The position numbers and the translations under genes were made by a program. The notes below the pieces were generated by a model. The model saw only the letters and a program-made list of their open reading frames with translations, made no database searches and had not been told where the DNA came from. This document shows, piece by piece, positions 4,163 through 64,000 of a stretch of 64,000 bases of DNA (the stretch's first letter is position 1; each line of letters opens with the position of its first letter). Origin of the DNA: Verrucomicrobiales bacterium (GTDB lineage: Bacteria; Verrucomicrobiota; Verrucomicrobiia; Limisphaerales; SXTU01). The stretch is from positions 15,347-79,346 of the forward strand of contig SXTU01000063.1 of NCBI GenBank assembly GCA_005791875.1. Direction: 5' to 3'.

Positions 4163-4213
4163 ATAGGGAGAGACGATGGTGAGGAGGGGCGAGGTTAAAA
4201 AAGATTTGGCTGG

Positions 4214-4252
4214 GGCGGATTGGCCCACGGATCACGCGGATGACACGGATGG
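4214..4252. repeat. 9-bp periodic array (CRCGGATNN)
   Basis: CGGAT recurs at 4216, 4228, 4237 and 4246 (cacggatca cgcggatga cacggatgg). The same motif family recurs at 61036-61062. Confidence 0.6.
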
Positions 4253-17642: not shown

Positions 17643-17769
17643 CAAGACAGCTTGCCGAGAGGCTCGCTGAACTGGAAGCTTGGGGGCATGAAGTTTGTCC
17701 AAAATTCCTTTCATGCACAGCACAGCCGCCGCCGTCAAAACGCGCGTTGAATTTCCGCCTCCAATTCGT

Positions 17770-20814: not shown

Positions 20815-20817
20815 TTT

Positions 20818-25306: not shown

Positions 25307-25355
25307 AAGGAACTTGAGCTGTGTTGGCACGGGCGTTCTGGCTGGACGCGCGCTC

Positions 25356-25490
25356 CTCCCTCACCCCGGCCCTCTCACGCTGTGAAAGGGAGAATCGCAG
25401 TCCGCGTCCGGTGTCGCTGAATCGTCCAGTGAGTCGAACAGCTGTCGAACTGGCTCCCTCTCCCAGCGGGAGTGGGCCGGGGTGAGGGAG
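25356..25490. repeat. inverted-repeat element between the DUF1553 and DUF1501 genes
   Basis: ctccctcaccccggcc (25356-25371) is the exact reverse complement of ggccggggtgagggag (25475-25490). The arms extend imperfectly inward by about 13 nt. Confidence 0.75.
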
Positions 25491-25559
25491 AACGGCTCCG
25501 AACACACAACCAAATCCCGCACACTCGTAACGCGTATTTCCCTCTGCCCCGGTCGCCTC

Positions 25560-26963
25560 GTGCCCGCCGCCACGCGTCGCAGCTTCCTCCAGCAATCCAG
25601 CCTCGGCTTCGGCTGGCTCGCCTTCGCCGGCTTGTTCGGGCGCACAGCGGCCTCAGCCATTCCGCACTCCACATTCCGCACTCCGCATTTCCCGCCCCGC
25701 GCCAAGCACGTCATCTTTCTCTTCATGGATGGCGGCGTGTCGCATGTGGACACCTTCGACCCCAAGCCCGAGCTGACGAAGCGCAACGGCCAGCCCGCGC
25801 AGTGGCGTGCCGATGAGCTTTCCCAGAGCGTCAGCGCGAACCGCAAGTGGCTGAAGAACCAGTGGGAGTTCAAACAGCGCGGCCAGTCCGGCCTGTGGGT
25901 GAGCGACCTCCTGCCGCACATCGCGGGCGTCGCGGATGAGCTTTGCGTCGTGCGCTCGATGGTCGGCGAGACGCCGTTGCACGGCGCGCAGAGCCTGCTG
26001 CTCCACACGGGCCGCAGCATCGGCGCGGCGCCGAGTCTCGGCTCGTGGGTTTCCTACGGCCTCGGCACCGAGAACGAACAGCTCCCGAGCTACATGCTGC
26101 TCAACAACGACTGGGTGCCCAACGGCGGCTCGCAGAACTTCGCCAGCTCGTTCCTCCCCGCGACGCATCAGGCCACGCCCGTCCGCGCTAAGGGCCGGCC
26201 CGTGGACAACATCACGCCCGCCGACCCCGCCGCGTTGCAGCGCGCGAAGCTGGATTTCCTCCGTGAGCAAGACTCGGCCACCGCGAAGTCCCTCGGCGGC
26301 TCCGACGCCATCGAGTCCGCCATCAAGAACTACGAGACCGCCGCGCGGATGCAGTCGCTCGTGCCTTCGCTCTGCGACGTGAGCGGCGAGAGCGCCGAGA
26401 CGCTCCGCCTCTACGGCGTGGACCGCGCGAATGACTTCGACAAGTTCTACGCGCTCCAGTGTCTGCGGGCGCGGCGCATGGTCGAGGCCGGCGTGCGCTT
26501 CATCGAGGTCACCTGCCCGCTCACGCACAACAACAACGCGCCGTGGGACCAGCACGGTGAGTTGCGCAAGCGCCACGAGGAGAACGCTCGCATCACGGAC
26601 CAGCCCGTCGCCGCGCTCATCCGCGACTTGAAGGCGCGCGGCCTGCTCGACGAGACGCTCATCCTCTGGGCCGGCGAGATGGGCCGCACGCCGCACTCCT
26701 CCGGCACGGATGGCCGCGACCACCACGTCAGCGGCTACACCATCTTCATGGCCGGCGGCGGTGTGCGCGGCGGGATGACTTACGGCACCACGGACGAGAT
26801 GGGCATGAGCGCCGTCGAGCACCGCGTGGACATCCACGACCTGCACGCGACCATCCTCCACCAACTCGGCATGGACCACGAACGCCTCACCTTCCGCTTC
26901 GGCGGCCGCGACCAGCGCCTCACGGATGTGCATGGGCGAGTCATCCAAGAGATTCTCACCTGA
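25560..26963 (+). CDS. DUF1501 (sulfatase-fold) protein with Tat signal
   Basis: The track ORF starts at 25482, inside the inverted repeat. GTG at 25560 gives MPAATRRSFLQQSSLGFGWLAFAGLFGRTAASA, a compact Tat signal. Family blocks FLFMDGGVSHVDTFDPKP, GRDHHVSGYTIFMAGGG and HATILHQLG. Confidence 0.85.
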   Translation: MPAATRRSFLQQSSLGFGWLAFAGLFGRTAASAIPHSTFRTPHFPPRAKHVIFLFMDGGVSHVDTFDPKPELTKRNGQPAQWRADELSQSVSANRKWLKNQWEFKQRGQSGLWVSDLLPHIAGVADELCVVRSMVGETPLHGAQSLLLHTGRSIGAAPSLGSWVSYGLGTENEQLPSYMLLNNDWVPNGGSQNFASSFLPATHQATPVRAKGRPVDNITPADPAALQRAKLDFLREQDSATAKSLGGSDAIESAIKNYETAARMQSLVPSLCDVSGESAETLRLYGVDRANDFDKFYALQCLRARRMVEAGVRFIEVTCPLTHNNNAPWDQHGELRKRHEENARITDQPVAALIRDLKARGLLDETLILWAGEMGRTPHSSGTDGRDHHVSGYTIFMAGGGVRGGMTYGTTDEMGMSAVEHRVDIHDLHATILHQLGMDHERLTFRFGGRDQRLTDVHGRVIQEILT

Positions 26964-30125: not shown

Positions 30126-30401
30126 GCCAAAGGGAGCGCAGCTTAGGCACGCGGCGTGTCGGTGGAAAGTGACAATTGCGTGGCGGGAACCGGAGCCAGC
30201 GCGAAACGCAGGCTCAGGCATTTCTCATTGGCCTGCCGGCGGATTCGACCCAGCCCTCGACAGCATTCAGGGGCGACGCGAGCCGCGCATCCGTCCGTGT
30301 CGAATTGCGCCCGCCGTGCTTCCAGCCTCGACCTTTCGTGCGTCCGCCATGACTCTCGTCCGCACAACGCACCGCTCTCACACCCTGACTGCTGCCAGCT
30401 T

Positions 30402-33389: not shown

Positions 33390-34540
33390 TCACAAGGTCT
33401 TGAGATACTCGATCAAGGCCCACCGGTTGTCGTCGCTCGCGATTCGGGACCAGAAATCGTGCCCTTGATTTCCGTTGCCCAAGCGCCGGGTGTTAAACCA
33501 ATCACGGTCATCACCGTGCGCGCGGAGCAAGTGCGCCTTGTCGCGCGCCTGTGTTGCTGGCATCTCCGGGTTAAGCGCCTGGCCCACCTTCGGTTTGTCC
33601 AGCTTGCGAGCCGCAAGCACACTGAACACGCCCGGCCTTTCGGAAGCGGGGCCGAGCAGATGGTAGAGCGTCGGCACGCTGCCGTTGTGCAAGTAGGGGA
33701 AGTTGGCCCAGACGCCGGTCAAGGGTGTTGCTGCGTAGCCTTTGCTCCGGCTCAACTGTCCTTCCTTCGCGATCGGGCTGCCGTTGAAGGCGGCGGTGAA
33801 TCCGGCGTTGACTATTTCCATGCGGTCGGGATCGGTGCCGACCTCCGTGTGGAGGCCGGTCCAACGGATGTTGCCCTGCCCGTCGTAGGTTCCGTGGCAG
33901 GTGGCGCAGCCGAGCTTGTCTGACTCTAACAGGGCCTTGCCCTTGGCAGCCAGGCTGGCATCCACGGGGTAGGGATAACGCGGCGGGCGCAGGTGTTGGA
34001 TGACGCTCTTGAAGTCCGCCTGAATGGTCGGTAGCACCGAGGTGGCGAGCTTGTCGAAGGATTGGTCCAGTGCCAGTTCCATGGAGGAGGCCATGAGGGG
34101 AAAGGTGCCTTGGAAGCTGCCGTCACAATACCAGCGTTGGAAGGGCATCTTGGCTGCCGCATGCCAGAGGGGCGAGGTCTTGACGTCGCCGCGACCGACC
34201 TCACCGGCTGCCGGCATGGCCCCGCCGTGCGCCCGCATGTGCATCTCGACATGGGAGGCGGGGAACGCCGTGGAGCGTCCGCGGGTCAGCGGATCAAACG
34301 CCGGGTGATGGTGGCGGCGAAGGATTTCGTGCGCGCTCCTGGCCGTGGCCCTGTCGAGCGGATCGGCGCGGAGGGCGGTGAGTTGCGCGAGATCCGTCAC
34401 GTGTTGCGCGGCCTTGCCCAGAATCATTTCGTCGAGGGTCTTGGTGCCGGCACCGAGGTAGGCGACGCCATCTATCTCCGCCATGTGACACGCGAGGCAG
34501 TTAACAGATACCTGCGAAACAAAGTTACTGGAGAATCGCT
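33390..34540 (-). pseudogene. di-heme cytochrome c (peroxidase-like) family gene lacking its 5' end
   Basis: The track ORF starts at ATG 34484, but the frame stays open upstream and reads ...FSSNFVSQVSVNCLACH-M. A first CxxCH heme motif therefore lies just 5' of the only start codon. No start codon or signal peptide exists before the upstream TGA. A second motif, CATCHG, is internal. Confidence 0.6.
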
Positions 34541-41069: not shown

Positions 41070-42524
41070 ATGATTAGAATCTCCGGACAGAGCAAAGCCG
41101 CCTGCGACGGCCTGCGCCGCCGCGAAATGCTGCGCCTCGGCGGCTTGTCCTTGCTGGGCATGTCGCTGCCGGATTTGCTCCGCGCGGAGGCGACGCTTCC
41201 CGCGAAGCCTGGGCGGGGCAAAGCCAAGTCTGTCATTCTGCTGTATCTCTTCGGCGGGCCGGCGGTGCAGGAGACCTTCGATCCAAAGACCGACGCGCCC
41301 CGCGAACTTCGCGGCGAGTTTGGCTCGATCCGCACCTCGCTGCCCGGCATCCATTTCTGCGAGCACCTTCCGCGCGCCGCGAAGTGGATGGACCGCTCCA
41401 CGCTCATCCGTTCCGCCACGCACGATCAGAACGACCACAGCGCCGGGATGCTCTACACGATGACCGGTGCGCCCGCCGACAAGCTGGAGTCGCTGGTGCC
41501 CGTGCTCAACACTCAGGCCCCGAGCATGAACGCGATGGTCGAGTATCTCTCTCGCACCAGCCGCAGCACCGCGCCCGCGAGCGTTTGGATGCCGTGCAAT
41601 CCCGGCTGGGGCCAGAAGATCACCCGGCCCGGCCCCTTCGCCGGCTGGCTCGGTCGCAAGTGGGACCCGCTCGTGACCGATGTGGAGTTGCGCGACACCT
41701 ACGAGGCGAAGTCTTTCTACGACGTGCAGCGTCAGGCCGCCGGCAACATCCTCGTGCCCGGCACCAAACTTCCCGCCGACATCACGCTCGACCGCTTCGC
41801 CCACCGCCGTTCGCTCGCTGAACAGCTTCACATTCAAGCCGACCGCGTCGGCAACTCGGAGGCTTACGAGCGCTACGATGCCTACCAGAAGCGAGCCCTC
41901 GACATCCTCGCGGACAACAGCTCCACCGACAGCGCATGGCGCGCCTTCGACCTCGGCGACGAGAAACCCGCCCTTCGCGACCGCTACGGCCGCCACCTCT
42001 TCGGCGAGTCGGCGCTGACGGCACGACGGCTTGTCGAGCGCGGCACGCGCTTCGTGACCGTGTATTGGGAATCCTACGACAAGACCGGCGGCGACCCGAC
42101 CGCGTGGGACACGCACTCCGACCACTTCAACATCTGCAAGAACCACCGCCTCCCGCCACTCGACCAGACTTACTCCGCGCTGTGTGAAGACCTGCAAGCG
42201 CGCGGCCTGCTCGATGAGACGCTCGTCATCGTGATGGGCGAGATGGGCCGCTCACCGAAAATCAACCGCAGCGCCGGGCGCGACCACTGGTCGTTCGTCC
42301 ACAACATCTTGATGACCGGCGCGGGTGTGAAACGCGGCTACGTCCACGGCGCGTCGGACAAGAATGCCGAGCGCGTGACTGACAAGCCCGTCGGCCCGGC
42401 GGACTTCATCGCGACGGTCTATGCCGCGATGGGCATTGACCCGGACAGCTTTGTAGAGGACGCGGGCGGGCGGCTGCGGCCGATCACGCCGGGTGGGAAC
42501 GTGGTGAGGGAAGTGTTGGCCTGA
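41070..42524 (+). CDS. DUF1501 (sulfatase-fold) protein with Tat-like signal
   Basis: GLRRREMLRLGGLSLLG, SVILLYLFGGPAVQETFDPK, GRDHWSFVHNILMTGAG. The 417-aa minus-strand ORF 40944..42197 is its antisense shadow. Confidence 0.9.
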   Translation: MIRISGQSKAACDGLRRREMLRLGGLSLLGMSLPDLLRAEATLPAKPGRGKAKSVILLYLFGGPAVQETFDPKTDAPRELRGEFGSIRTSLPGIHFCEHLPRAAKWMDRSTLIRSATHDQNDHSAGMLYTMTGAPADKLESLVPVLNTQAPSMNAMVEYLSRTSRSTAPASVWMPCNPGWGQKITRPGPFAGWLGRKWDPLVTDVELRDTYEAKSFYDVQRQAAGNILVPGTKLPADITLDRFAHRRSLAEQLHIQADRVGNSEAYERYDAYQKRALDILADNSSTDSAWRAFDLGDEKPALRDRYGRHLFGESALTARRLVERGTRFVTVYWESYDKTGGDPTAWDTHSDHFNICKNHRLPPLDQTYSALCEDLQARGLLDETLVIVMGEMGRSPKINRSAGRDHWSFVHNILMTGAGVKRGYVHGASDKNAERVTDKPVGPADFIATVYAAMGIDPDSFVEDAGGRLRPITPGGNVVREVLA

Positions 42525-44938: not shown

Positions 44939-46324
44939 ATGCTAACGCTGCAAGACCGCCTGCACCGCCGCCAGTTCCTGCGCGTCGGTGGCCTTTCGCT
45001 GGGCGGCCTCACCCTCGCGGACCTGCTGGCGGCGAAGGCCACCGCCCGGTCCGCCAAGCTCCCCCTCCGCGACAAGTCCGTCATCTTCCTATTCCAGCAC
45101 GGCGGCCCCTCCCAGTTCGAGACCTTCGACCCCAAGATGGACGCGCCCCGCGAGATCCGCTCTGCGACCGGCGAAATCCCAACCAAGATTCCCGGCATCA
45201 CCTTCGGTTCCACCTTCGAGCGCCTGGCGAAACTTAACGACAAGTTCTCCATCGTCCGCTCCTTCGCCACCGGCGATGCCAACCACGACATCAAGCCCAT
45301 CGTCGGACGCGATACCCTCCGCGCCAACATGGGCACCCTCTACGCCCGCGTCGCCGGCGCGCTCCGCCCCGACACCGCGATGCCCACCAACGTCGCCCTC
45401 TTCCCCCGCGCCGTGGACCTAGCGTCCGGTCCGGCCATCACCTCGTTCGGCAACTTTGAGTCCACTGGGGAATTCGGCTCGGCCTACGCGCCTTTCGTGC
45501 CCGGTGCCGGTGGCGGCTTGCAGGCGGACATGAAGCTCAACCTCCCGCAGTCGCGCCTCAACGACCGCCGCGAGTTGCTCGGTTCCCTCGACCAATGGAA
45601 GCGCCGCGTCGAGGCCAGCGGCGCGTTCGACGGCACCGACACCTTCCAGCAGCAAGCCTTCGCCACGCTTGAGCGCGGCATCTCGGACGCTTTTGACCTC
45701 ACGAAGGAAGATCCGCGTGTCGTCGCCCGTTACGACACCGCGCCGCTCGCGTCGCGCGACCGCTTCAGCCCCGCGTGGAAGAACCGCGAGCACTACGCCG
45801 ACAACTCCGCTACGCTGGGCAAGCTCCTCCTCCTCGCCCGCCGCCTGTGCGAACGCGGCGCCGGTTTCGTCACCGTCACCACCAGCTTCGTGTGGGACAT
45901 GCACGCCGACGTGAACAACGCCCCGATGACCACCGGCATGGACTACGTGGGCCGCCCCTTCGACCACGCCGTCTCCGCGTTCATCGAGGACTGCGAATCG
46001 CGCGGGCTGCGGGACAAGATTCTCCTCGTCTGCTGCGGCGAGATGGGCCGCACGCCGCGCATCAACGCGAAGGGCGGCCGCGACCACTGGGGCGGCCTCG
46101 CCCCGCTGATGCTCTATGGCGGCGGCTTGCAGATGGGCCGCGTCATCGGCGCGTCCTCCCGCGATGGCGGCTCTCCTGCTGACAATCCGGTCACGATGCA
46201 AAACCTCCTCGCCACCGTCATGCACACCCTGCTGGACCTTGGCGAAGTCCGCGTGATGGACGGCTTGCCCAAGTCGCTCTTGGACACCCTCACCGGCGGC
46301 GAGACCATCAAGGGCTTGGTGTAA
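44939..46324 (+). CDS. DUF1501 (sulfatase-fold) protein with Tat signal
   Basis: HRRQFLRVGGLSLGG, VIFLFQHGGPSQFETFDPK, GRDHWGGLAPLMLYGGG. Confidence 0.9.
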   Translation: MLTLQDRLHRRQFLRVGGLSLGGLTLADLLAAKATARSAKLPLRDKSVIFLFQHGGPSQFETFDPKMDAPREIRSATGEIPTKIPGITFGSTFERLAKLNDKFSIVRSFATGDANHDIKPIVGRDTLRANMGTLYARVAGALRPDTAMPTNVALFPRAVDLASGPAITSFGNFESTGEFGSAYAPFVPGAGGGLQADMKLNLPQSRLNDRRELLGSLDQWKRRVEASGAFDGTDTFQQQAFATLERGISDAFDLTKEDPRVVARYDTAPLASRDRFSPAWKNREHYADNSATLGKLLLLARRLCERGAGFVTVTTSFVWDMHADVNNAPMTTGMDYVGRPFDHAVSAFIEDCESRGLRDKILLVCCGEMGRTPRINAKGGRDHWGGLAPLMLYGGGLQMGRVIGASSRDGGSPADNPVTMQNLLATVMHTLLDLGEVRVMDGLPKSLLDTLTGGETIKGLV

Positions 46325-50926: not shown

Positions 50927-52375
50927 TTGGCTAGGCTCCGCGCCATGACTCCGAACCGCTTGATGCCAGTTCTACTCGTAGCGATCCTTGCGTTCACTTC
51001 CAGCCAATCGATCTCCGCCGAGGCGAAACGTCCCAACGTCCTCTTCCTCTTCGCCGATGACATGCGCGCCGACTCGGTCGCCGCGCTGGGCAACCCGGTC
51101 GTGAAGACGCCCACGCTCGACGCGCTGGCGCAGCGGGGCTTCGTGATGCGCAACGCCTACTGCCTCGGCGGCAACTCCGGCGCGGTCTGCACACCCAGCC
51201 GGAACATGCTGCTCAGTGGCAACGCCTACTTCCGCTGGAAGGACTTCACGCCGCCGCAGGGTGCGAAGGGAATGCTCTCGCCCGGCGATGGACCGAACTG
51301 GCCGCTCTCGATGAAGGACGCCGGTTACGAGACCTACCACGAGGGCAAGCGCGGCAACACGGCGCTGCTCATCCAGGCGAAGTTCGAGCACAACCTCTAC
51401 ATCAACGAGAACGCCGACCGCACTGGCGGCGAGCCGGGCAAACAGATTGCCGACGACGTGACGAAGTTCCTCAAGGAGCGCAAGGCCCCGCGCCCCTTCT
51501 TCATGTATCTCGCCTTCGGCAACCCGCACGACCCGCGCATTGCAGCGCAGAAGTATCACGACCTTTATCAGCGCGACAAAATCCCGCTGCCGAAGAACTA
51601 CCTGCCGCAGCACCCCTTCGACAACGGCGAGATGACCGTGCGCGACGAGGCGCTGCTGCCCTGGCCCCGCACCGAGGCCGGCGTGCGCAAGGAACTGCAC
51701 GAATACTATGCCACCATCACCGCTATGGATTTCCACATGGGCCGCATCATCGCCACGCTCAGGGAGCTCGGGCAGCTCGACAACACGCTCATCCTCTTCT
51801 CCGCAGACCAGGGCATCGCCATCGGCAGCCATGGCCTGCTCGGCAAGCAGAACCTTTACGACGCCGGCATGAAGTCCCCGCTCATTTTCGCCGGTCCCGG
51901 CATCCCTCACGGCGCGAGCGACGCCCTGGTTTATCTGCTCGACATCTACCCGACCGTGCTTGACCTCGTCGGCGTGGCGAAGCCCGCGGGCATTGACGGC
52001 CAGAGCTTCCGTCCCGTTCTCACCGGCTCCACGAAGACCGTGCGCAACGAGATGTTCTTCGCCTACCGCGATCTTCAGCGCGCGTGGCGTGATGACCGCT
52101 GGAAACTCATCCGCTATCCGCAGGTGAACGTGACACAACTCTTCGATCTGCAGGCCGACCCCGACGAGATGAAGAACCTCGCCGACCTCCCCGCGCACAA
52201 GCCGCGCGTCGAGCAACTGCTGGCCAAGCTCAAGGAATCGCAGGCCAAGTTCACCGACACCCTCCCGCTCACCGTGCCGAATCCCAAATCCGCCAAGTGG
52301 ACGCCACCCAGCGCGGAGCAACTGGCGAAACAAAAGGCCGGGAAGAAGGCGGAGAAGAAGAAGGAGGCGAAATGA
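50927..52375 (+). CDS. sulfatase (formylglycine type), secreted
   Basis: PNVLFLFADDMRAD and CTPSRNMLLSG (CxPxR), with a Lys-rich C-terminal tail. An alternative ATG is at 50945. The 496-aa minus-strand ORF 50972..52462 is antisense shadow. Confidence 0.9.
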   Translation: MARLRAMTPNRLMPVLLVAILAFTSSQSISAEAKRPNVLFLFADDMRADSVAALGNPVVKTPTLDALAQRGFVMRNAYCLGGNSGAVCTPSRNMLLSGNAYFRWKDFTPPQGAKGMLSPGDGPNWPLSMKDAGYETYHEGKRGNTALLIQAKFEHNLYINENADRTGGEPGKQIADDVTKFLKERKAPRPFFMYLAFGNPHDPRIAAQKYHDLYQRDKIPLPKNYLPQHPFDNGEMTVRDEALLPWPRTEAGVRKELHEYYATITAMDFHMGRIIATLRELGQLDNTLILFSADQGIAIGSHGLLGKQNLYDAGMKSPLIFAGPGIPHGASDALVYLLDIYPTVLDLVGVAKPAGIDGQSFRPVLTGSTKTVRNEMFFAYRDLQRAWRDDRWKLIRYPQVNVTQLFDLQADPDEMKNLADLPAHKPRVEQLLAKLKESQAKFTDTLPLTVPNPKSAKWTPPSAEQLAKQKAGKKAEKKKEAK

Positions 52376-52691: not shown

Positions 52692-53342
52692 ATGTCAGAC
52701 ATCTTTCCGAAATGGACGAACAAGCTGCCCGCGATGGTGATCGTGGGCGGGCTGATCGTCGGTGGCGTGGTCACGGCGGGCATCACCTACTACATGACGC
52801 CCAAGTATGCGCGCGTCGGCTACACGCCGGTGCAACCGGTGGCCTTCAGCCACGCGATTCACGCGGACCAACTCGGACTGGACTGCCGCTACTGTCACAA
52901 CGGCGTCGAGAAGTCCTGGTATTCCAACGTCCCCGCCGCCAGCACGTGCATGAACTGCCACAATCAGGTGCTCAAGGATGACCCCAAGCTCGCGCTCGTC
53001 CGCGAGTCGGCGGCGACTGGGAAGCCGGTGCCTTGGGTGCAGATCCACAAGACGCCCGACTTCGTTTACTTCAACCACGCCGTCCATGTGAACCGCGGCG
53101 TCTCCTGCGTGCATTGCCACGGCCCGGTGAACAAGATGGACGAGGTGCGCCACAGCAAGTCACTGGGCATGTCCTTCTGCCTCGAATGCCACCGGGACCC
53201 GGCGGCCAAGATTCGTCCCAACGAACACGTCTTCAACCTCGACTGGCAGGCCCCCGAAGGCTTTGCCAAGAGCGGCGGCGCGAAGCTAGTCAAGGACTGG
53301 AACGTGCATCCCGGCGAGAGCTGCTCCGTCTGCCACCGATGA
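52692..53342 (+). CDS. actA: Alternative Complex III subunit ActA (membrane-anchored pentaheme cytochrome c)
   Basis: N-terminal TM helix. Five CxxCH motifs: CRYCH, CMNCH, CVHCH, CLECH and CSVCH. Confidence 0.9.
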   Translation: MSDIFPKWTNKLPAMVIVGGLIVGGVVTAGITYYMTPKYARVGYTPVQPVAFSHAIHADQLGLDCRYCHNGVEKSWYSNVPAASTCMNCHNQVLKDDPKLALVRESAATGKPVPWVQIHKTPDFVYFNHAVHVNRGVSCVHCHGPVNKMDEVRHSKSLGMSFCLECHRDPAAKIRPNEHVFNLDWQAPEGFAKSGGAKLVKDWNVHPGESCSVCHR

Positions 53343-56300
53343 AATCCATCCCTCCTGTCTGTCCCGAGCCGGAAACCGGCCCGCAATACTTCCGCAGCCC
53401 CGAGGCGATGGCCAATTCCGCCCAGCTTCAGGAATGGGCCGAGCGCGAATTCCCTGCTGGGGCCAGCGAGTTGACCGCCGCCGAGTCGCGCCGCGACTTC
53501 ATGAAGCTGATGTCCGCGTCCTTCATGCTGGCGGGCTTCGGCCTCACGGGCTGCCGCCGGCCCACGGAGCACATCTATCCCTTTGGCAAGCAGCCGGAAG
53601 GCTACCTCCACGGCGTGGCGCAGCATTTCGCAACCGCCATGCCCACGCGCACGGGCGCGATTCCGCTGCTCGCGAAATCCAGCGATGGCCGGCCGACGAA
53701 GGTCGAGCCCAACCCGCTGCATCCTGACCAGGCTGGCACTGACCAATTCGCGCAAGCCTCCGTCCTCGGTCTCTACGACCCGGACCGCGCGCAGCACTTC
53801 CGCAACAAGGGCAACATCGCCAAGCGGGTGGACGCACTCGACGCTCTCTCGCAAATCTCCAAGAGCGCCGCTGCCAACGGTGGCCGTGGCCTCGCCATCA
53901 TCGTGGAGAGCAACAGCTCGCCGACCCGCGCCCGTCTCCAAGCGGCCATTGCCGCGAAGCTCCCCAACGCGGTTTGGGCCAACTACGACGCGGTGAATTC
54001 CACCATCCACACGCAGGCCGCGAGCCTCGTGACGGGCAAGCAGGTCACGCCTTACTTCAAGTTCGCAGGGGCCAAACGCATCCTCTCACTCGACTGCGAT
54101 TTCCTCGGTGGCGAGGACGAGATGTATCGCTACACGCGCGACTTCGCGAAGGGCCGCAAGATTGCCAAGCCCGACACCGCGCAAGGTTTTGAACTCATCA
54201 GCCGCCTCTACACGGTCGAGTCGTTGATGACGCTCACCGGCTTCAGCGCCGACCATCGCATGCGCGTGGCTCCGAGCCAGGTCGCGGCGGTTGCGGCGCA
54301 GCTCGCGGCGGAAGTGCTCAGGCAGTCCGGTCGCCCCAACTTGCTGAACACCTCCACCCTCGCCGCCAGCTTGAAGGTGGATGTCACCTTGAAGAACTGG
54401 GTTGCGGAATGCGCCAAAGACCTCGTCGCGCACAAGGGCGCGGCCCTCGTCGTCGCTGGTCAGGGCCAACCGCTCGCCGTCCATGTGCTCGCGCACGCAA
54501 TGAACGAAGTGCTCGGCGCGTTCGGCAAGACCATCGAGCTAAACAATGCTCCTGCCGCCGCGCAGCCGCTCGCTGCCGCCGTCGGTGCGGAAACCGTGGT
54601 CGTCCTTGGGGCAAACCCGGCTTACACCGCTTCCGAGACTTGGAACCAGATTGCCAAGTCCGCGAAGACCAGCGTCCACCTCGGTTCCCACGAGGACGAG
54701 ACGGGCAAGGCCGCGACGTGGCACATCCCCGCCGCGCACTATCTCGAATCTTGGGGCGACGCCCGCACCAGCGACGGCACGGTCGTTGCCATTCAGCCGC
54801 TCATCGCGCCGCTCTTTGCCGGCCTGACGGAGACGGAAGTGCTCGGTCATCTGCTTGGCAATCCCACCGCGAATTCCTACTCGCTCACCCGCGAGACGTT
54901 CGCCGCCCTCACCGGTGGTGCGCTTGAAGAAGAGAAGTGGAAGAAGTTCCTGCACGACGGCTTGCTCGAAGGCTCGAAGGCGAACGCGGTTTCCGCTTCC
55001 TTCAACTGGACTGCGGCAGCAGGCGCAGTTGCTTCTGCGACGGCGGCCTCGGCCCCTTCCAAGGACAAGCTCGAAGTCATCTTCCACCGCGACGCGAGCG
55101 TGGACGACGGGCGTTACACGAACAACGGCTGGCTTCAGGAATTGCCCGACCCGATTACGAAGCTCGTCTGGGACAACGCCGTGCTCATCAGCCGCGAGAC
55201 GGCGACGCAGCTCGGCCTGAAGAACGGCGACGTGATTTCGGTTTCTGCCAATGGCCGCATGGTCGAGGGCGGCATCTGGATTCAGCCCGGCATGGCGGAC
55301 TTCACGCTCGGTCTCGCGCTCGGCTATGGCCGCAAGTGGGGCCGCATCGCGAGCTTTGAGGACAAGAGCGTCGGCTTCAACGCCTACCCGCTGCGTCCCG
55401 GCACCGCCGGCCTCATCACCGGTGCGTCCGCGAAGTCCACGGGCCGCACGCACCCGTTCATCTGCACGCAAGACCACTGGACGCTTCACGGCCGCCCGGT
55501 CGTGCGCGAGGCGAACGTGGACCAGTTCCTCAAGAAGCCTGACTTCGCGAAGCACATGGACCTCGATGGTCACACCGAGTTCCTCCCGAAGAACCCGGAC
55601 GGGTCCATCAAGAACATTTACGAGCATCCCTACAAGACCCACCCCGAGCTGGCCAGCAAGTCGCACCAGTGGGGCATGGTCGTGGACCTCAACGCCTGCA
55701 CCGGTTGCTCCGCGTGCGTCATCGCCTGCCAGAGCGAGAACAACATCCCCATCGTCGGCAAAGACCAAGTGGCCAAGGGCCGCGAGATGCACTGGATGCG
55801 CATTGACCGCTACTACGCGGCGGACCCGAGGAAGAAGGAAACGGGCTCAATCCTAGCCGCATTCAAGAGCAACGTCACTGGCAGTCAGGGCAACCCCGAC
55901 ACCGTCAACCTCGTCGAGCGCGACGAGTTGCAGGCGACGAAGCGGTGGATTGACGACCCGCAGGTCGTGACCCAACCGATGATGTGCCAGCACTGCGAAA
56001 ACGCGCCGTGCGAGAGCGTCTGCCCGGTGAACGCCACCGCTCATGATGACGAGGGCTTGAACGTGATGGCCTACAACCGTTGCGTCGGCACGCGTTATTG
56101 CGCCAACAACTGCGCATGGAAGGTGCGCCGGTTCAACTTCTTCGATTTCAACAAGCGCCCCATCGGCGGCGGCAAGATGGCCGACAGCTTCTTCAAGTTG
56201 GACATCGGTCTCTACAAAGGCCCGGCTGGCGTTCGCCCCGGCGACGAGGTGGACATCATCTCGATGGCCCGCAACCCGGACGTGACCGTCCGCATGCGCG

Positions 56301-56698
56301 GTGTCATGGAGAAGTGCACGTTCTGCCAGCAACGTATCGAGGGCGCGAAGATTTCGCAGAAGGTCAAGGCCGGCGCGAGCAACGACGTGGTGGTGAAGGA
56401 AGGCGCGATTCAAACCGCCTGCCAGCAAGCCTGCCCCGCCGGGGCCATCACCTTTGGCAACATTCTCGACCCGAACAGCGCCGTCTCGTTGCTCAAGAAG
56501 CAGAACCGCAATTACTCGGTCCTCGGCTTCCTCGACAACAAGCCTCGCACGACTTACCTCGCGCGCATCCGCAATCTCAACCCCGCCATGCCCGAGGGGC
56601 ACAAACAAATCTGGACCGTCGAGGAATACCGCAGTATCTCGGACCCTCATTTCATGCCGGAGCCAAAGACTGACGGGGCCGCGAAAGGGGCCAAGTAA
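53339..56698 (+). CDS. actB: ACIII subunit ActB (molybdopterin-oxidoreductase-like domain fused to 4Fe-4S ferredoxin-like domain, Tat signal)
   Basis: The ATG overlaps the actA stop (ATGA). Tat signal [24 protein letters not shown]-terminal Fe-S cysteine clusters [40 protein letters not shown] and CTFCQQR. Confidence 0.9.
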
Positions 56699-56700
56699 CC

Positions 56701-58139
<1,439 letters not shown>

Positions 58140-58140
<1 letters not shown>

Positions 58141-58670
58141 TGAACGCTTACGGTCTCATGGCGGTCTTCGAAACCCCCGCTGACGCGATGCACGCGGCGG
58201 AGCGGGTGCGCGATGCCGGCTACTCCAAGTGGGATGTCCACACGCCGTTCCCCGTCCACGGGCTGGACGCGGCCATGGGCATCTCGAACTCCAAGGTCGG
58301 CTGGTTCACCTTCATCGGCGGCGCGACGGGCTACACCACCGGCATGATCATGATCTGGTGGATGAACGCCTTCGACTACAAGATCGTCATCGGCGGCAAG
58401 CCCATGTTCAGCCCGTTCTACGCCTTCCCGGTGAGCTACGAGTTGACGATCCTCTTCGCCTCCTTCGGCTCGCTGATCGGCATGGCCCTGCTGAACCGCC
58501 TCCCGCGCCTGCACCACCCGCTGCTGAGGAACCGCCGGTTCTGTCAGGGCGCGTCGCACGACAAGTTCATCCTCGTCATCGAGACGGCGGACCCGAAGTT
58601 CAACGCCGACGAAACCCGCAAGCTGCTCGCGTCCGCCGGCAGCAAGCACATCGAGATGGTGGAGGACTGA
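58140..58670 (+). CDS. actD: ACIII subunit ActD (DUF3341)
   Basis: MNAYGLMAVFETPADAMHAAERVRDAGYSKWDVHTPFPVHGLD is typical of DUF3341. The start overlaps the actC stop by 1 nt. Confidence 0.85.
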
Positions 58671-58672
58671 CC

Positions 58673-59317
58673 ATGCGTTACTTCTTCGCAGCTCTCTTTG
58701 GTTTTCTGCTTCTGGCGCTGACCATCTTCGGCATCGCCGGACGGCGCGGCACGGACTTCCGCAAGCCGCCGCTGGAAATCTTCGACGACATGGTGCGCCA
58801 GGCCAAGCTCCGGCCGCAGGTGCCCAACAGCTTCTTCGCCGACGGTCGCAGCTCGCAGGCGTTCGTCGCGGGCACCGTCGCCCAGCGCATCGGCGACCAC
58901 GGCAATGACACTTGGCAGGGCACCGCGGAGAACACCGGCATGGAACCCGGCAAGACGAACTTCGTCGCCACCATCCCCGTGCCCGTTACCGCCGCGCTCA
59001 TGGCCCGGGGCCGGGAGCGTTACAATATCTCCTGCCTCCCGTGCCACAGCGCGACCGGCGACGGCAACGGCATCACCAAGAAAATCGGTGCGATGCCGGT
59101 GGTGGCCAACCTGCTCGACAAGAACGCCATTATCATCCCCGACGGCCAAGTATTCCACATCATCGGCCAAGGCAAAGCCCCGAACATGCAGGGCTACGCC
59201 GCGAACATCGAAATCAATGACCGTTGGGCCATCGTCGCCTACGTCCGCTCCCTCCAGCGCGCGCGCTTCGCGACCCTGGAGGAAGTCCCCGCCGCCGACC
59301 GCGCCACGCTGAAGTAA
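58673..59317 (+). CDS. actE: ACIII subunit ActE (membrane-anchored monoheme cytochrome c)
   Basis: ATG 58673 gives MRYFFAALFGFLLLALTIFG. There is a single CLPCH motif and an MQGY region. Confidence 0.85.
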   Translation: MRYFFAALFGFLLLALTIFGIAGRRGTDFRKPPLEIFDDMVRQAKLRPQVPNSFFADGRSSQAFVAGTVAQRIGDHGNDTWQGTAENTGMEPGKTNFVATIPVPVTAALMARGRERYNISCLPCHSATGDGNGITKKIGAMPVVANLLDKNAIIIPDGQVFHIIGQGKAPNMQGYAANIEINDRWAIVAYVRSLQRARFATLEEVPAADRATLK

Positions 59318-59321: not shown

Positions 59322-60611
59322 ATGACCTCGCACGCTCTTCATCTCCTGACTGGTCTGCGCCGCAGCGTTGCCGCCGGTATGATCGCTCTCTTTGCCATCG
59401 CACTGCTGGGCAACGGTGCCCTCGCCGCCGAGCACGCCAAGACTGAGGCCAAGACCGTGCAGACTGCTGACGCCCACCACGGGCACACGCACGGTCCCGC
59501 CGGCCACCCGACTACCGCCAAGCAGTTCGGCTACGCCTACCTCACGGCTTACATGTTCTGCCTGAGCCTGTGCCTGGGCGCGCTGTTCATCGTCATCCTG
59601 AACCACCTCTTCGACGCGCAGTGGATGATTCCCATCCGCCGCTTCCTCGAACACATCGCGTGCCTGCTGTTCCCGACGATGTTCATCCTCTGGATTCCCA
59701 TTGGCTATCTCGCGGTGGACATCTATCCGTGGATGTCCATTGACCCGGACTACGACCACGCGCTCCACGCGAAGGCGATTCTCTTCAACAAGCCTGCTTT
59801 CTACGGTGTGTCCTGCCTGCTGTTTCTCGTCTGGGGCTTCATCGCCCACGGCCTGCGCAGCGCCTCGCTCGCTCAGGACAAGGACGGCGCGGCCTCCCAC
59901 ACTCGCACGATGCGCCGGTATGCAGCAGGCGGGATTTTCCTCTTCGCATTCAGCCTGACCGGCGCGGCCATTTACTGGATGAAGTCCCTGCAGCACCAGT
60001 TCTTCTCCACCATGTATGGCGTCGTCTATTTCGCCGGCAGCGTGTGGGTGACGGCCATCACCACCTACTGGCTGCTGCTCTACTTCAAGAACCGCGGCGA
60101 CCTGAAAGATGTGGCGCGCGAAGTCACCTTCCACGACTGCGGCAAGCTCTTCTTCGCCTTCACCGTCTTCTACGCCTACATCCACTTCAGCCAATACTTC
60201 CTTATCTGGAACGCCGCCGTGCCGGAGGAAACCTTCTGGTATGTCCTGCGCGAAAACGGCACTTGGAAATGGGTCGGCCAGCTCACCATCTTCGGCCACT
60301 TCTGGTTCCCGTTCATCTTCCTGCTGCCCATCCATCGCAAGCTGAACTTCCAAGCCATGAGCATGATGACGGGTTGGGCTTGGCTGTGCCACTACATGGA
60401 TTTGCAGTTCAATATCGGTCCAGTGCTCTACCCGGACGGCTTGAGCGTGGGCATCTACGACGTGCTCTCGCTGGGCGGGATTCTGGCCGTGCTCATCTTC
60501 ATGTTCAGCCGCGCCTTCAACGCCCACCCGCCCTATCCCCAGCGCGACCCGCGCATAGCCGAGGCGATGGGAGTCTATGTCGAACCCGCATCCAGCAAGG
60601 CTGCCCACTAG
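59322..60611 (+). CDS. actF: ACIII subunit ActF (second NrfD-related membrane subunit)
   Basis: 429 aa polytopic protein at the position and with the size expected for ActF. The N-terminal loop is His-rich (ADAHHGHTHGPAGHP). Confidence 0.8.
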   Translation: MTSHALHLLTGLRRSVAAGMIALFAIALLGNGALAAEHAKTEAKTVQTADAHHGHTHGPAGHPTTAKQFGYAYLTAYMFCLSLCLGALFIVILNHLFDAQWMIPIRRFLEHIACLLFPTMFILWIPIGYLAVDIYPWMSIDPDYDHALHAKAILFNKPAFYGVSCLLFLVWGFIAHGLRSASLAQDKDGAASHTRTMRRYAAGGIFLFAFSLTGAAIYWMKSLQHQFFSTMYGVVYFAGSVWVTAITTYWLLLYFKNRGDLKDVAREVTFHDCGKLFFAFTVFYAYIHFSQYFLIWNAAVPEETFWYVLRENGTWKWVGQLTIFGHFWFPFIFLLPIHRKLNFQAMSMMTGWAWLCHYMDLQFNIGPVLYPDGLSVGIYDVLSLGGILAVLIFMFSRAFNAHPPYPQRDPRIAEAMGVYVEPASSKAAH

Positions 60612-60623: not shown

Positions 60624-61028
60624 ATGAGCTGCCCCGAATCCCAAGACTCCTGCTGCACTCCCGCCTGCCGCACGAAGACCGCCTACTTCCTCGGCGCGCT
60701 CGTCGTCATCCTACTCGGCGTCGGCATCACCGCGCTCCTCAAGAGCTACACCGAGACCGGCGCAAGCGCCGCCCGCGACGCCCGCGCCAAGGAACGCGCC
60801 AAGGCGCAGGCAGAACTCCGTCAGGTCACCGCGCTGGAGCTGAACAATGCCGCCGTGCTCGACAAGGCCAAGGGCATTCACCGCATCCCCGTCTCGGCGG
60901 CGATGGAGTTGACCTTGAAAGAATACCAGACGGACGCCGCTGCCAGTCGCACCGCGTTCGTCGCGCGCGTCGAGAAGTTCACCGCCCCGCCGCCGAAGGC
61001 GCCGGAGAAACCGAGCGCGTTCGAGTGA
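60624..61028 (+). CDS. small single-pass membrane protein with Cys-rich N-terminus (possible ActG-like accessory subunit)
   Basis: MSCPESQDSCCTPACRTKT, then the TM helix AYFLGALVVILLGVGITALL, then a charged helical tail. The function call rests on position only. Confidence 0.6.
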   Translation: MSCPESQDSCCTPACRTKTAYFLGALVVILLGVGITALLKSYTETGASAARDARAKERAKAQAELRQVTALELNNAAVLDKAKGIHRIPVSAAMELTLKEYQTDAAASRTAFVARVEKFTAPPPKAPEKPSAFE

Positions 61029-61122: not shown

Positions 61123-62538
61123 ATGACCACCGCCCAACCCAGCAGCCAGACCGCCTGCGCTGCCGCGCCCTCCGTCGCGGAGGTAGAGGCGTCGTGCCGG
61201 CTGCCGGTGCTGTTCCTCGCCTTCAGTGGCGCGGCTTGGCTGTGCGCCGGCGCGGTGCTCGCGCTGCTCGCCAGCGTTCAGCTTTACCAGCCCGCCTTCA
61301 TGGAAGGCTGCGCGTGGGTCACCTACGGACGACTCCGTCCCGCCGCCGTCAACGCGCTCACCTACGGCTTCGCGCTCCAAACCGCCTTCGCCCTCGCCCT
61401 CTGGCTCATCGCCCGGCTCGGTCGCGTGGAACTGGTCGCGCCTCTCGGTCTCACCATCGCCGCCAAGTTCTGGAACATCGCCGTGACCGTCGGCGTGTTC
61501 GGCATTCTCGCGGGCGACGCCACCGGCTTCGACCTCCTGGAGTTCCCGCTCTACGCCGCGCTGCCGCTCTTCGCCAGCTACGCATGCATCGCCGCGTGGG
61601 CGTTGGTCACACTGCATCGCCGCACCGAGCGCGAGCTTTATGTCTCGCTCTGGTTCGTGCTCGCGGCGCTGCTCTGGTTCCCGTGGATTCTCTCCACCGC
61701 GCAAGGATTGCTGCTCGGCTGGCAGGTGCCCGGCGTGGTGCAGGCCATCGTCGCCGGCTGGTTCGGCAACAACCTCCTGCAAATCGTCCTGACCAGTTTC
61801 ACGCTCGCCGTGCTGTTCTACTTCGTGCCGAAGGCCGTGAAGCGTCCGCTCGCCAATCCCGGCCTCGTGAGCGCCGGCTTCTGGCTGCTGCTGCTCATCG
61901 GCGGCTGGTGCGGCCTCTCGCAGCTCGCGGCGGTGCCCGCGTGGATTCCGTCCGTCAGCGGCGCGGCGAATGTGCTCGTCATCGTGCCGGTGCTCGCGCT
62001 GCTCGTTTCCCTCTGGCAGACCGCCGATGGCAAAATCGCCGAGTCGTGGAAATCGAACGCCACCTTCCGCTTCCTGCTTGTCGCGGCGATTCTGCTGCTG
62101 GGCGTGACGCTGTGCACGGCGGTCTTTGGTGGCCACTACACGCAGTTCACCTTCTTCGCCACCGCCCGCACGGACATCGTGCTGCTTGGCGTGTTCGGCC
62201 TCGCGGCGCTCGGCGCGCTGCATTACATCGTGCCGCGTCTCACGACCGGTGAGGACGAGCTGCCTTCCGAAGGGCTGTCTGACCTGGCGTTCTGGGCGGC
62301 GCTGTTCGGCGTGCTCGCAGTTGGCATCGGCTTCAGTCTTGCCGGCTTCAAGCAGGCTGCCGTGGGCGCAAGCGCGGAGAGCAAATTCCTGGAGGGCGCG
62401 GTCACGGGAGTCGCCAGCAATCTCAAGCTCGTCACCGTCGGCTACGGCGCGATGGCGGTCGCGGCGCTCGCCTTTCTCGTCAACTTCGGCCTCGCGGCGC
62501 GTCGTTGCTGCCTCGACTGCTGTGGAGGTGCGCGATGA
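61123..62538 (+). CDS. CcoN-like (cbb3 heme-copper oxidase subunit I homologue) membrane protein lacking all canonical heme/CuB histidine ligands
   Basis: The 471-aa protein aligns block by block with CcoN (YGRLRP, LEFP, LYVSLWF, LFYFVPKAVKRP, FRFLLV, ALHYIVPR). The ligand motifs instead read RPAAVN, WFGNN, GLSQL and ARTDIV. The C-terminus is CCLDCCGGAR. Confidence 0.8.
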   Translation: MTTAQPSSQTACAAAPSVAEVEASCRLPVLFLAFSGAAWLCAGAVLALLASVQLYQPAFMEGCAWVTYGRLRPAAVNALTYGFALQTAFALALWLIARLGRVELVAPLGLTIAAKFWNIAVTVGVFGILAGDATGFDLLEFPLYAALPLFASYACIAAWALVTLHRRTERELYVSLWFVLAALLWFPWILSTAQGLLLGWQVPGVVQAIVAGWFGNNLLQIVLTSFTLAVLFYFVPKAVKRPLANPGLVSAGFWLLLLIGGWCGLSQLAAVPAWIPSVSGAANVLVIVPVLALLVSLWQTADGKIAESWKSNATFRFLLVAAILLLGVTLCTAVFGGHYTQFTFFATARTDIVLLGVFGLAALGALHYIVPRLTTGEDELPSEGLSDLAFWAALFGVLAVGIGFSLAGFKQAAVGASAESKFLEGAVTGVASNLKLVTVGYGAMAVAALAFLVNFGLAARRCCLDCCGGAR

Positions 62539-63623
62539 GATACGGCCCCATCATCGGTGCGGGCGCGCTGTTCTCCCTCGCCTGCTCGTGGGCGGCGTTG
62601 GTCATGGCCCCGCAGCTCCAACTCGGCGCGCTGGCCCCCGCGCCCATCCCGAACACCTCGGACGTTCACCCCGCCCTCCGGCCCGGTCTCGCGGCGCAGG
62701 GCGCAGAGGTCTATCGCTCGCTCGGCTGCTACCAGTGCCACACCCGGCAGGTGCGGCAGGACGCACTGCTCTTCGGCGCGCGGCTTAACGACGTTGGCTC
62801 CAACGCCAACACCATCAATCTCGAACTGCCCGGCAGCGGGAAGACGAACCTCGTCAACCTCGACCTGCTCATCGCGCTCGCGAAGGCCCGCCCCGACCTC
62901 GGCATCGCCAAGGTCACCGTGCCTCCGCCACTGCTGGCTGACACAAACGTCGTTGCGGCGCTCGGTCAGTTCACCGCGAACCTCACTCTGCTCAAGCACG
63001 CCGACGACAAGCTCGACGTCGTCCGTCCGACTTCCGGCCCCACGGTCAACGACGTGGTTGGGAACCGCCCGGCGGAAATCTTCGTCAAAGTCGCCCCCGA
63101 AACCGCCGAGAGCGTCGTGAAGCTGCTCACGGACTCCGGGGCCAAGGCCGAGCTGGTGATCTGCAATCTCGGCCCCGACATCGAACGCGGCTGGGGCGCG
63201 CGTCGCAGCGTGGCCCGCGATTTCGTGAACGACACGCCCGTGTTGCTCGGCAGCCTGCGCGTCGGCCCTGACCTCGCGAGCATCGGCATGCGCGCGCCGG
63301 AGAAGTTCGCCGCGCCGTGGAAGTTCGCGGGCACCAACACCGCCGCCGAAGTGGAGCACCACCTCTTGGTTCACCTCTACAACCCGCGCCTGCTGGCCCC
63401 GGCCTCGACCTGTCCGTCTGCCGCCTACCTGTTCGACAAGCAGAAGCCCGAGGTTCGCTTTGCTGGCGAGCCGCTAGCCTTGCCCGGCAAGGACGCGCCC
63501 GTTTTCCCGAAGCACAATGCCCGGGCGCTGGTCGCCTATTTGCTGACCCAGCGCACTGATGTCGGCCTGCTGGAAGCGCCCACGCCCGCGGTGGCCAAGG
63601 CCGCCGCCCCTGCGAAGCCATGA
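62535..63623 (+). CDS. CcoO-like monoheme cytochrome c subunit with large internal insertion
   Basis: The ATG overlaps the upstream stop (ATGA). N-terminal TM helix. Motifs GAEVYRSLGCYQCHTRQVR, later LRVGPDLASIG and HLYNPR. About 178 residues separate CxxCH from GPDL, against roughly 45 in canonical CcoO as I recall it. Confidence 0.75.
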   Translation: MRYGPIIGAGALFSLACSWAALVMAPQLQLGALAPAPIPNTSDVHPALRPGLAAQGAEVYRSLGCYQCHTRQVRQDALLFGARLNDVGSNANTINLELPGSGKTNLVNLDLLIALAKARPDLGIAKVTVPPPLLADTNVVAALGQFTANLTLLKHADDKLDVVRPTSGPTVNDVVGNRPAEIFVKVAPETAESVVKLLTDSGAKAELVICNLGPDIERGWGARRSVARDFVNDTPVLLGSLRVGPDLASIGMRAPEKFAAPWKFAGTNTAAEVEHHLLVHLYNPRLLAPASTCPSAAYLFDKQKPEVRFAGEPLALPGKDAPVFPKHNARALVAYLLTQRTDVGLLEAPTPAVAKAAAPAKP

Positions 63624-64000
63624 GCAAGAACAAGAAGCAGCCCGCGCCCGCGCCTGAGCGTGCCGAGACCGAGCCGACGATTGCCGCCGGCGGTGGCAGC
63701 GCGTGGCCGTTCGTTCTGCTGGGAGTCATCCTCTTTGGTTGCTTCCTCCACGTGGAGAACACCGGCGGCGCGTTCCGTGCGGACGTGTATCAGGCCGGGA
63801 TGAAGACGCCGCCGCCGCAGGCCGACGAACCGCCGGAGGTGAAGGCATTCAAGCGCGGCGCGCAGCTCTATGCGGCTGGGTGCGCCGGCTGCCATCAGGC
63901 CACCGGGCTTGGCTCCGCGCCGCTGAACTTTCCGCCGCTGGCCGGCTCAGAATGGGTGCTGCGCGAGAAGCCGGACCGCCTCGTCCGCATCATACTCAAC
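63620..64000 (+). CDS. membrane-anchored class I c-type cytochrome (CcoP-like), 5' part; runs off window end
   Basis: Not in the track because there is no stop in the window. The ATG overlaps the upstream stop (ATGA). Translation: MSKNKKQPAPAPERAETEPTIAAGGGSAWPFVLLGVILFGCFLHVEN...KRGAQLYAAGCAGCHQATGLGSAPLNFPPLAGSEWV. Confidence 0.7.
   Translation, partial: MSKNKKQPAPAPERAETEPTIAAGGGSAWPFVLLGVILFGCFLHVENTGGAFRADVYQAGMKTPPPQADEPPEVKAFKRGAQLYAAGCAGCHQATGLGSAPLNFPPLAGSEWVLREKPDRLVRIILN

Follow-up and report, generated by a model that had tools for sequence, protein, structure and literature searches.

What is left of a heme-copper oxidase subunit I once every residue that held its cofactors has been replaced, and what might such a protein do beside a respiratory complex? 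The question is raised by a gene near the end of the 64,000-nucleotide (nt) stretch of Verrucomicrobiales bacterium DNA analyzed here (contig SXTU01000063.1), which we refer to as the window. An unbroken open reading frame (ORF) encodes a 471–amino acid (aa) protein related to CcoN, subunit I of cbb3 oxidases. We call this protein CcoN* and assign it from its family match, alignments, an AlphaFold2 (AF2) model, and the ratio of nonsynonymous to synonymous substitution rates (dN/dS).

61123–62538, plus strand: CcoN*, a homolog of cbb3 oxidase subunit I that lacks the cofactor ligands

CcoN* matches the Pfam family COX1 (PF00115) over residues 30 to 410 (E = 4.9e-31; score of 108.5 bits, cut-off of 34.8). 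The solved structure most similar in sequence is the CcoN chain of the Pseudomonas stutzeri cbb3 oxidase, 3mk7_A (HMMER E = 3.2e-22, residues 33 to 401 against 18 to 396). An AF2 model based on an alignment of 38 family members (pLDDT of 89.8, pTM of 0.90) was compared to solved structures using Foldseek and matched 3mk7_A with a TM score of 0.86 and an rmsd of 2.1 Å over 458 columns. Across cbb3 CcoN chains, the TM score was 0.86 to 0.87, and the 12-helix fold of subunit I is kept in the model. The listed subunit I chains of nitric oxide reductases (NORs) and of ba3, caa3, and aa3 oxidases gave 0.66 to 0.79; the NOR structures were more distant fold matches at 0.66 to 0.75, with 0.56 for the qNOR entry 8bgw. 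Both the profile and the structural comparison had been proposed in the initial annotation, and its description of a full-length, collinear CcoN homolog is supported by the COX1 and 3mk7_A matches and by the alignments. All six sequence blocks quoted there (YGRLRP, DLLEFP, ELYVSLWF, LFYFVPKAVKRP, FRFLLV, and GALHYIVPR) were found. Against NCBIfam TIGR00780, the CcoN equivalog, CcoN* scored 98.1 bits, far under the cut-off of 583.15.

HMMER and MAFFT alignments agree on the fate of the six histidine ligands of heme b, heme b3, and CuB. H60 of P. stutzeri CcoN is replaced by A75, H207 by N216, H257 and H258 by S266 and Q267, H345 by R349, and H347 by D351; the corresponding motifs change from RPLHTN to RPAAVN, from WYGHN to WFGNN, from GPHHL to GLSQL, and from GHVH to ARTD. 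The ligand numbers given in the initial annotation proved to be correct, since these histidines sit in the four motifs of 3mk7_A, and its claim that every one of them is replaced holds in both alignments. The alignment to 3mk7_A places the former ligand codons of CcoN* at the following positions.

61345–61347, plus strand: A75
61768–61770, plus strand: N216
61918–61923, plus strand: S266 and Q267
62167–62169, plus strand: R349
62173–62175, plus strand: D351

MAFFT sometimes puts a gap opposite H258, and moving a 3-residue indel that precedes R349 brings A346 and A348 opposite H345 and H347, so that no alignment gives histidines at the latter two sites. Wherever this indel is placed, none of the ligand sites receives a histidine. 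CcoN* contains exactly three histidines, H165 (in LHRR), H338 (GGHYT), and H367 (ALHYI), and, as initially stated, none is at a ligand position; in the HMMER alignment, H338 is the counterpart of the conserved, nonligand His337 of P. stutzeri. The cross-linked tyrosine Y251 is replaced by glycine, the proton-path residues Y223, S240, and Y317 by F, V, and L, and W203 is replaced as well. The same ligand losses are seen in all close orthologs. By sequence and fold, CcoN* belongs to the heme-copper oxidase superfamily, yet it fails the six-histidine ligand test that defines it, and the annotation “cbb3 oxidase” should not be applied to it. Since the cofactor ligand positions are common to oxidases and NORs (which have FeB instead of CuB) and all of them are replaced, CcoN* fails the test for a NOR too. 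Judging from these substitutions, the protein, which lacks the cross-linked tyrosine and the proton-path residues, is probably devoid of heme b, heme b3, and CuB and would not be expected to reduce O2 (or NO).

CcoN* is not a one-off. In a protein collection clustered at 90% identity, we found 76 homologs, all ligand-less, including a distant set at 30 to 42% identity. A search with the family profile against 1.84 billion representatives at 50% identity returned 3476 matches at E ≤ 1e-3 and 718 at E ≤ 1e-30, with the best 150 all below E = 1e-104. Among the clusters of these best 150, 145 were deficient in some or all ligands; 96 had no histidine at the six sites, 40 had one, 8 had two, 1 had three, and 1 had four; 4 were canonical. 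The family has diverged to less than 35% identity and fills more than 140 clusters at 50% identity, with length, fold, and operon position kept. When the ligand columns were scored in 87 loci, 19 read HHHHHH, while the rest were ligand-less and varied (ANS-RD in the clade of the window, ANP-QQ, AQRHQQ, and SHY-VN). This variation bears on the proposal that CcoN* is still a redox enzyme of unrecognized chemistry, binding hemes or another metal through nonhistidine ligands. The one or two histidines left in 40 and 8 of the best 150 clusters, and the Met, Tyr, Lys, or Gln found at those sites in other clades, are compatible with the proposal. However, the six sites of CcoN* itself are occupied by A, N, S, Q, R, and D, none of its three histidines is nearby, and the replacements differ between clades, which is unexpected for metal ligands; we therefore consider it extremely unlikely.

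A genome scan detected CcoN* relatives in no fewer than 388 species genomes, the best 80 all being Verrucomicrobiota by context. Orthologs at the same operon position, a survey of which had been suggested in the initial annotation, are widespread in this phylum. The cultured species Fontisphaera persica (CP116615.1) carries a ligand-deficient CcoN following its ACIII (alternative complex III) genes. Contigs labeled Acidobacteriota and Methylomirabilota also carry the operon; these labels are unreliable, and we do not conclude that the range extends beyond Verrucomicrobiota. Several records of GTDB representative metagenome-assembled genomes with the verrucomicrobial operon are mistitled as Klebsiella pneumoniae, Akkermansia muciniphila, Bifidobacterium, or Proteobacteria (L009, L011, L012, L015, L019, L023, L052, and L084).

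The substitutions are not an assembly artifact. Two independent assemblies differ from the window by 1 to 2 of the 1416 nt of the CcoN* gene and by 4 to 14 nt in the 11.3 kb of the whole operon, and sequencing errors, which the initial annotation had named as a possible source of the substitutions, do not account for them. To estimate constraint, dN/dS was calculated for all 78 pairs within the window clade (13 sequences, 74 to 92% identity). The median for CcoN* was 0.19 (range 0.08 to 0.30). The same method applied to other genes of the same loci gave 0.07 for ActA, 0.10 for ActC, 0.16 for ActB and for ActE, 0.19 for ActF, 0.20 for the CcoO-like protein (CcoO*), 0.21 for the downstream cytochrome c, and 0.33 for a small ORF. 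CcoN* is therefore under the same degree of constraint as ActF, a genuine membrane subunit of ACIII. Orthologs are numerous and intact, without a single frameshift or stop codon in ~65 ligand-less loci. Together with the dN/dS value, this agrees with the initial view of a gene that is maintained rather than decaying. With its catalytic residues lost, its fold kept, and purifying selection acting on it, CcoN* is a pseudo-enzyme.

A dead subunit heading for loss, persisting through operon linkage alone, would also have lost every catalytic residue and would drift freely at its former ligand sites, as is seen here, and the dN/dS of CcoN* is about twice that of CcoN from the canonical clade (0.19 versus 0.10). 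Nevertheless, we consider a nonfunctional relic very unlikely: CcoN* matches ActF in dN/dS, the ligand-less loci are free of frameshifts and stops, and the family has diversified widely while retaining its length, fold, and operon position. Moreover, ~60 structural positions, mainly W, G, and P, are still conserved between ligand-less and canonical CcoN.

CcoN* is the product of gene 8 of 10 co-directional genes that encode ActABCDEF, a small protein, CcoN*, CcoO*, and a monoheme cytochrome c. The seven genes upstream of CcoN* are as follows.

52692–53342, plus strand: ActA, pentaheme cytochrome c subunit of ACIII and first gene of the operon (Pfam Cytochrome_C7/c3)
53339–56698, plus strand: ActB, molybdopterin-like/Fe-S subunit of ACIII, 1119 aa, whose start overlaps the ActA stop (gene call with Fer4 matches in the near-identical locus L088; tblastn synteny)
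56701–58140, plus strand: ActC, NrfD-type membrane subunit of ACIII (Pfam NrfD, E = 6e-21)
58140–58670, plus strand: ActD (Pfam ActD PF11821, E = 5e-65)
58673–59317, plus strand: ActE, monoheme cytochrome c subunit of ACIII, 214 aa (Cytochrome_CBB3/Cytochrom_C matches in L088; synteny)
59322–60611, plus strand: ActF, second NrfD-like membrane subunit of ACIII, without a Pfam match and assigned by its place after ActE in all loci
60624–61028, plus strand: small conserved protein, 134 aa, with a Cys-rich N terminus, one transmembrane helix, and a C terminus ending in PSAFE (tblastn matches in nearly all loci)

The small ORF matched no Pfam or NCBIfam family. It occurs in canonical and ligand-less ACIII-cbb3 operons alike, and its product may be a supercomplex-specific subunit. 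The initial annotation had placed CcoN* 95 nt after the ACIII genes; the ACIII operon context stands, but the gap is 94 nt and follows the 134-aa ORF, not ActF. No terminator-like site was found on the plus strand between ActF and CcoN*. Downstream, an ATGA overlap at 62535–62538 joins CcoN* to CcoO*, confirming the translational coupling noted initially, and a second ATGA at 63620–63623 joins CcoO* to the cytochrome c gene. The same ten-gene order was observed in distant relatives at 31 to 38% identity (L003, L005, and L007) and, in 80 species-representative genomes, in nearly all loci with an upstream flank (~70 loci). By gene order, CcoN* and its partners are a candidate accessory module of ACIII, sharing one operon with ActA–F across lineages. 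The exceptions are L077, L072, and L006. In L077, a canonical CcoN is found without act genes in the 10 kb upstream, and in L072 a gap of ~2 kb separates the small ORF from CcoN; L006 is described below.

From what kind of enzyme did CcoN* arise? In the canonical verrucomicrobial set, all 18 proteins keep the six histidines, Y251, Y223, S240, Y317, W203, H337, and E122/E125. A search with one canonical member led to Opitutaceae, including the cultured Nibricoccus aquaticus, strain TAV1, and Actomonas aquatica, and 118 of the 121 sequences of this Opitutaceae set carry all ligands and the tyrosine. In N. aquaticus (CP023344.1, L093), the operon is identical, running from ACIII through the small ORF to CcoN, CcoO, and cytochrome c, with the ligands intact. 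Most of these residues are missing from the ligand-less proteins, many of which share derived states, with H60 replaced by A, Y223 by F, S240 by A, and Y251 by G. A neighbor-joining tree that included four extra canonical outgroups and left out the diagnostic columns put 63 of the 65 ligand-less proteins in one clade (63 to 64 tips). This clade was sister to the canonical verrucomicrobial clade, and it was recovered in 85 of 100 bootstraps when replicates with and without L064 were both counted. In a first neighbor-joining tree, whose sole outgroup was P. stutzeri, the canonical clade was nested within the ligand-less proteins; this topology was rejected as a probable long-branch artifact after the outgroups had been added.

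CcoN* derives from the catalytic subunit of such a canonical cbb3 oxidase linked to ACIII. In the simplest history suggested by these sequences, the cofactors would have been lost once, early in the ancestry of Limisphaerales and Pedosphaera-like Verrucomicrobiota. Separate losses may have occurred in L064 and L006. The CcoN of L064 (CAIXIZ010000427.1) lacks part of its ligands (AHSRSY) and clusters with the canonical proteins; it may represent a second, recent loss. At L006:10001–13329 (ena:ERZ26167216, a 1.14-Mb contig), a very divergent ligand-less CcoN (AGARLT) is encoded with FixO-like and cytochrome c genes. What adjoins the L006 module is not ACIII but a Rieske/cytochrome b/cytochrome c cluster that is transcribed divergently, and the module may be an independent dead oxidase beside an analog of complex III.

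Whether the module as a whole is redox-dead can be judged from the two genes that follow CcoN*.

62535–63623, plus strand: CcoO*, a CcoO/FixO-like membrane-anchored monoheme cytochrome c, 362 aa (Pfam FixO, E = 2.9e-10; aligned to 3mk7_B and 8smr_F)
62727–62741, plus strand: heme motif of CcoO*, C65-YQ-C68-H69 (alignment)
~62760–63200, plus strand: insert of ~145 aa in CcoO*, residues ~76 to 222, between the CXXCH motif and the remaining FixO domain (AF2 and Foldseek)
63411–63413, plus strand: Cys293 of CcoO*, at the axial Met position (family alignments)
63620–64000, plus strand: membrane-anchored monoheme cytochrome c (Pfam Cytochrom_C and Cytochrome_CBB3), cut at the window end; the gene would end at ~64240 and encode 206 aa in full, as seen in L088

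The CXXCH motif is kept in all 74 complete CcoO-like proteins, and a single CXXCH is found in 67 of 67 orthologs of the third protein. Since the partners keep their heme c sites, loss of redox function is confined to subunit N and does not extend to the whole module. The axial methionine of CcoO (S-x-M-P) is present in 15 of 15 canonical and 48 of 48 other ligand-less operons, i.e., in all 63 proteins outside the window clade. In the window clade, it is replaced by cysteine (S-T/I-C-P) in 11 of 11 proteins, and in 12 of 12 in a second family alignment, and the c heme of CcoO* in this clade is therefore predicted to be His/Cys-ligated, which we consider probable. Elsewhere, c-hemes with His/Cys ligation typically occur at catalytic or low-potential sites, as in SoxA, TsdA, and DsrJ. 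CcoO* proteins of ligand-less operons are also 50 to 150 aa longer than canonical CcoO. The insert is modeled as an α/β domain (pLDDT of 83 to 94) resembling the C-terminal domain of the ribosomal protein L7/L12 (1ctf, target-normalized TM score of 0.83, with a weak Foldseek E value of ~0.1). Precomputed matches to PF00542, located in the insert, were present in many CcoO proteins of ligand-less operons and in none of the canonical ones.

These features of CcoO* raise the possibility that CcoN* has become a mere anchor and that function has moved to CcoO*, which has gained the L7/L12-like insert in most ligand-less operons. The module would then catalyze a redox reaction new to it in the periplasm, or act as a sensor of redox state or of a small ligand, instead of merely relaying electrons. 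The fixed Met-to-Cys change, the extra length, the PF00542 matches, the confident model of the insert, and, by analogy, the usual roles of His/Cys hemes elsewhere would all fit such neofunctionalization. Still, the cysteine is limited to one clade, with methionine retained in all the other ligand-less operons; the insert is missing from some of them, e.g., in F. persica, and its structural match is weak; and no substrate-binding motif was identified in the module. We thus regard this explanation as rather unlikely.

On balance, we lean toward a different reading, in which CcoN* is a pseudo-enzyme scaffold that holds membrane-tethered c-type cytochromes on ACIII. The 12-helix body of CcoN* would serve as the membrane scaffold of a three-protein module that also contains CcoO*, with its heme c, and the tethered monoheme cytochrome c. 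The module would be made together with ActABCDEF and probably docked onto it, as we infer from the shared operon. In the ancestor, ACIII would have worked with the module as a menaquinol oxidase supercomplex. Where the ligands are gone, electrons leaving ActA/ActE would stop at the c-hemes of the module, and the assembly could act as a menaquinol:cytochrome c reductase with its own tethered cytochromes, presumably feeding separate terminal reductases.

The pattern of conservation bears on this proposal. Positions conserved in the ligand-less group alone are all hydrophobic, small, or aromatic (L, V, I, F, Y, G, A, and P). Residues at the former ligand sites vary widely among clades. Drifting ligand sites and the lack of a group-specific polar or charged residue speak against both a conserved ion path and a newly acquired metal-binding or catalytic site, and they speak for retention of the fold and its subunit interfaces. 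The initial annotation had listed a scaffold, a proton or ion path, and a docking module as possible roles; scaffolding or docking is favored by these data, and a path is disfavored, given the loss of Y223, S240, Y251, and Y317 and the absence of family-specific polar residues.

An empty shell could nevertheless add to charge translocation by ACIII, through a passive or redox-coupled path for protons or other cations or through conformational coupling, in resemblance to the antiporter-like subunits of complex I. The 12-helix fold is fully kept, polar or charged residues are frequent at the former ligand sites (R349 and D351 are fixed in the window clade, and Q, N, or R are common elsewhere), and E140 (E125 of P. 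stutzeri), R70, K237, and N454 are conserved. However, the residues of the cbb3 proton path are gone (Y223F, S240V/A, Y251G, and Y317L), the polar residues at the ligand sites change from clade to clade, and no polar or charged position is specific to the ligand-less group, the conserved charged ones being present in canonical CcoN too. We consider a role of this kind unlikely.

Several observations also weigh against the scaffold reading. That ACIII forms one complex with CcoN*, CcoO*, and the cytochrome c is no more than suggested by their shared operon. The need for a 471-aa scaffold is not obvious, since transmembrane anchors are already present in both CcoO* and the third cytochrome. By analogy with known His/Cys hemes, that of the window clade should sit well below the potential of menaquinol, a poor fit to a downhill wire from ACIII. 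No other terminal oxidase was found within the window, and the confidence of the AF2 model says nothing about whether the former heme cavities are filled. It is conceivable, though in our judgment unlikely, that the emptied shell and the altered CcoO* have together gained a new activity on ACIII, such as a c-heme site that senses redox state or a ligand or that catalyzes a reaction, or ion conduction through the cavities left by the hemes. If so, ACIII of Limisphaerales would be a respiratory machine of a new type and not a quinol:cytochrome c reductase that carries a structural fossil.

Outside the operon, the window contains the following features.

2750–4228 and 50927–52375: two sulfatases
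8477–9892, minus strand: dnaA (Bac_DnaA, DnaA_N, and DnaA_C domain matches)
17695–26963, 41070–42524, and 44939–46324, plus strand: repeated pairs of PSCyt1/PSCyt2/PSD1 (DUF1549/DUF1553) and DUF1501 proteins, typical of the PVC group
27984–30221: polyphosphate kinase
33390–34484: RoxA-like cytochrome c protein

Cumulative GC skew turns near 10 kb, beside dnaA, and the window probably spans the chromosomal replication origin.

If CcoN* is a scaffold, the structural survival of a heme-copper oxidase core subunit without its cofactors would be, as far as we found, the first case. The initial annotation knew of no description of such a protein, and our full-text literature searches likewise found no published account of a ligand-less CcoN on ACIII, although an earlier mention in key subscription papers is possible. 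The solved ACIII structures covered here report no CcoN*-like subunit (PMC5928083). The finding also affects how genomes are read. NCBI and JGI name these genes “cbb3-type cytochrome c oxidase subunit I/II,” and papers on Verrucomicrobiota genomes take cbb3 genes as a sign of high-affinity, microaerobic O2 respiration (PMC13608581 and PMC7914226). For the very diverse ligand-less clade, high-affinity O2 respiration deduced from a cbb3 annotation is probably wrong. The canonical sister operon provides a natural experiment on the noncatalytic share of subunit I in a III-IV supercomplex, and cultured strains exist with both forms: F. persica (ligand-deficient, complete genome) and N. aquaticus (intact).

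Among known systems, CcoN* is most directly compared to CcoN/FixN of the C-family cbb3 oxidases (P. stutzeri 3MK7/5DJQ). It shares their 12-helix fold and is collinear over residues 33 to 401; its operon shares the order of N, O, and cytochrome c genes with overlapping stop and start codons and a CcoO partner with CXXCH. Unlike cbb3 CcoN, it has none of the six histidines, Tyr251, the proton-path residues, or W203, and its TIGR00780 score of 98 bits compares with a cut-off of 583. Its operon encodes a third subunit with a single heme, where CcoP has two, and no ccoGHIS or ccoQ genes lie nearby. The ACIII-linked cbb3 operon of Opitutaceae and other Verrucomicrobiota shares identical gene order, ~40% identity to CcoN*, and a sister position in the neighbor-joining tree; the Opitutaceae proteins differ in keeping the ligands and the tyrosine (118 of 121; 18 of 18), in a short CcoO without the insert, and in slower evolution (dN/dS of 0.10).

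Colocation of ACIII and cbb3 genes has been reported for Methylacidiphilum kamchatkense (PMC6688271). Linkage of ACIII and oxidase genes and ACIII-caa3 supercomplexes are known from Flavobacterium johnsoniae and Rhodothermus marinus (PMC5928083; Sun et al. 2018, as cited there). In those systems, too, the oxidase genes follow the ACIII genes, and we propose the same logic here, with a docked partner taking electrons directly from the cytochromes of ACIII. The partner there is an active A-family oxidase, whereas here it would be a cofactor-less C-family shell, known from its sequence and a model. A further parallel comes from mitochondria, where the peptidase-derived core proteins of the bc1 complex are pseudo-enzyme structural subunits. 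Like them, CcoN* would be a former enzyme fold held under selection as an architectural subunit after its catalytic residues were lost. In contrast to them, the dead protein is the catalytic heart of a terminal oxidase, so that its loss of function would change the reaction of the whole complex.

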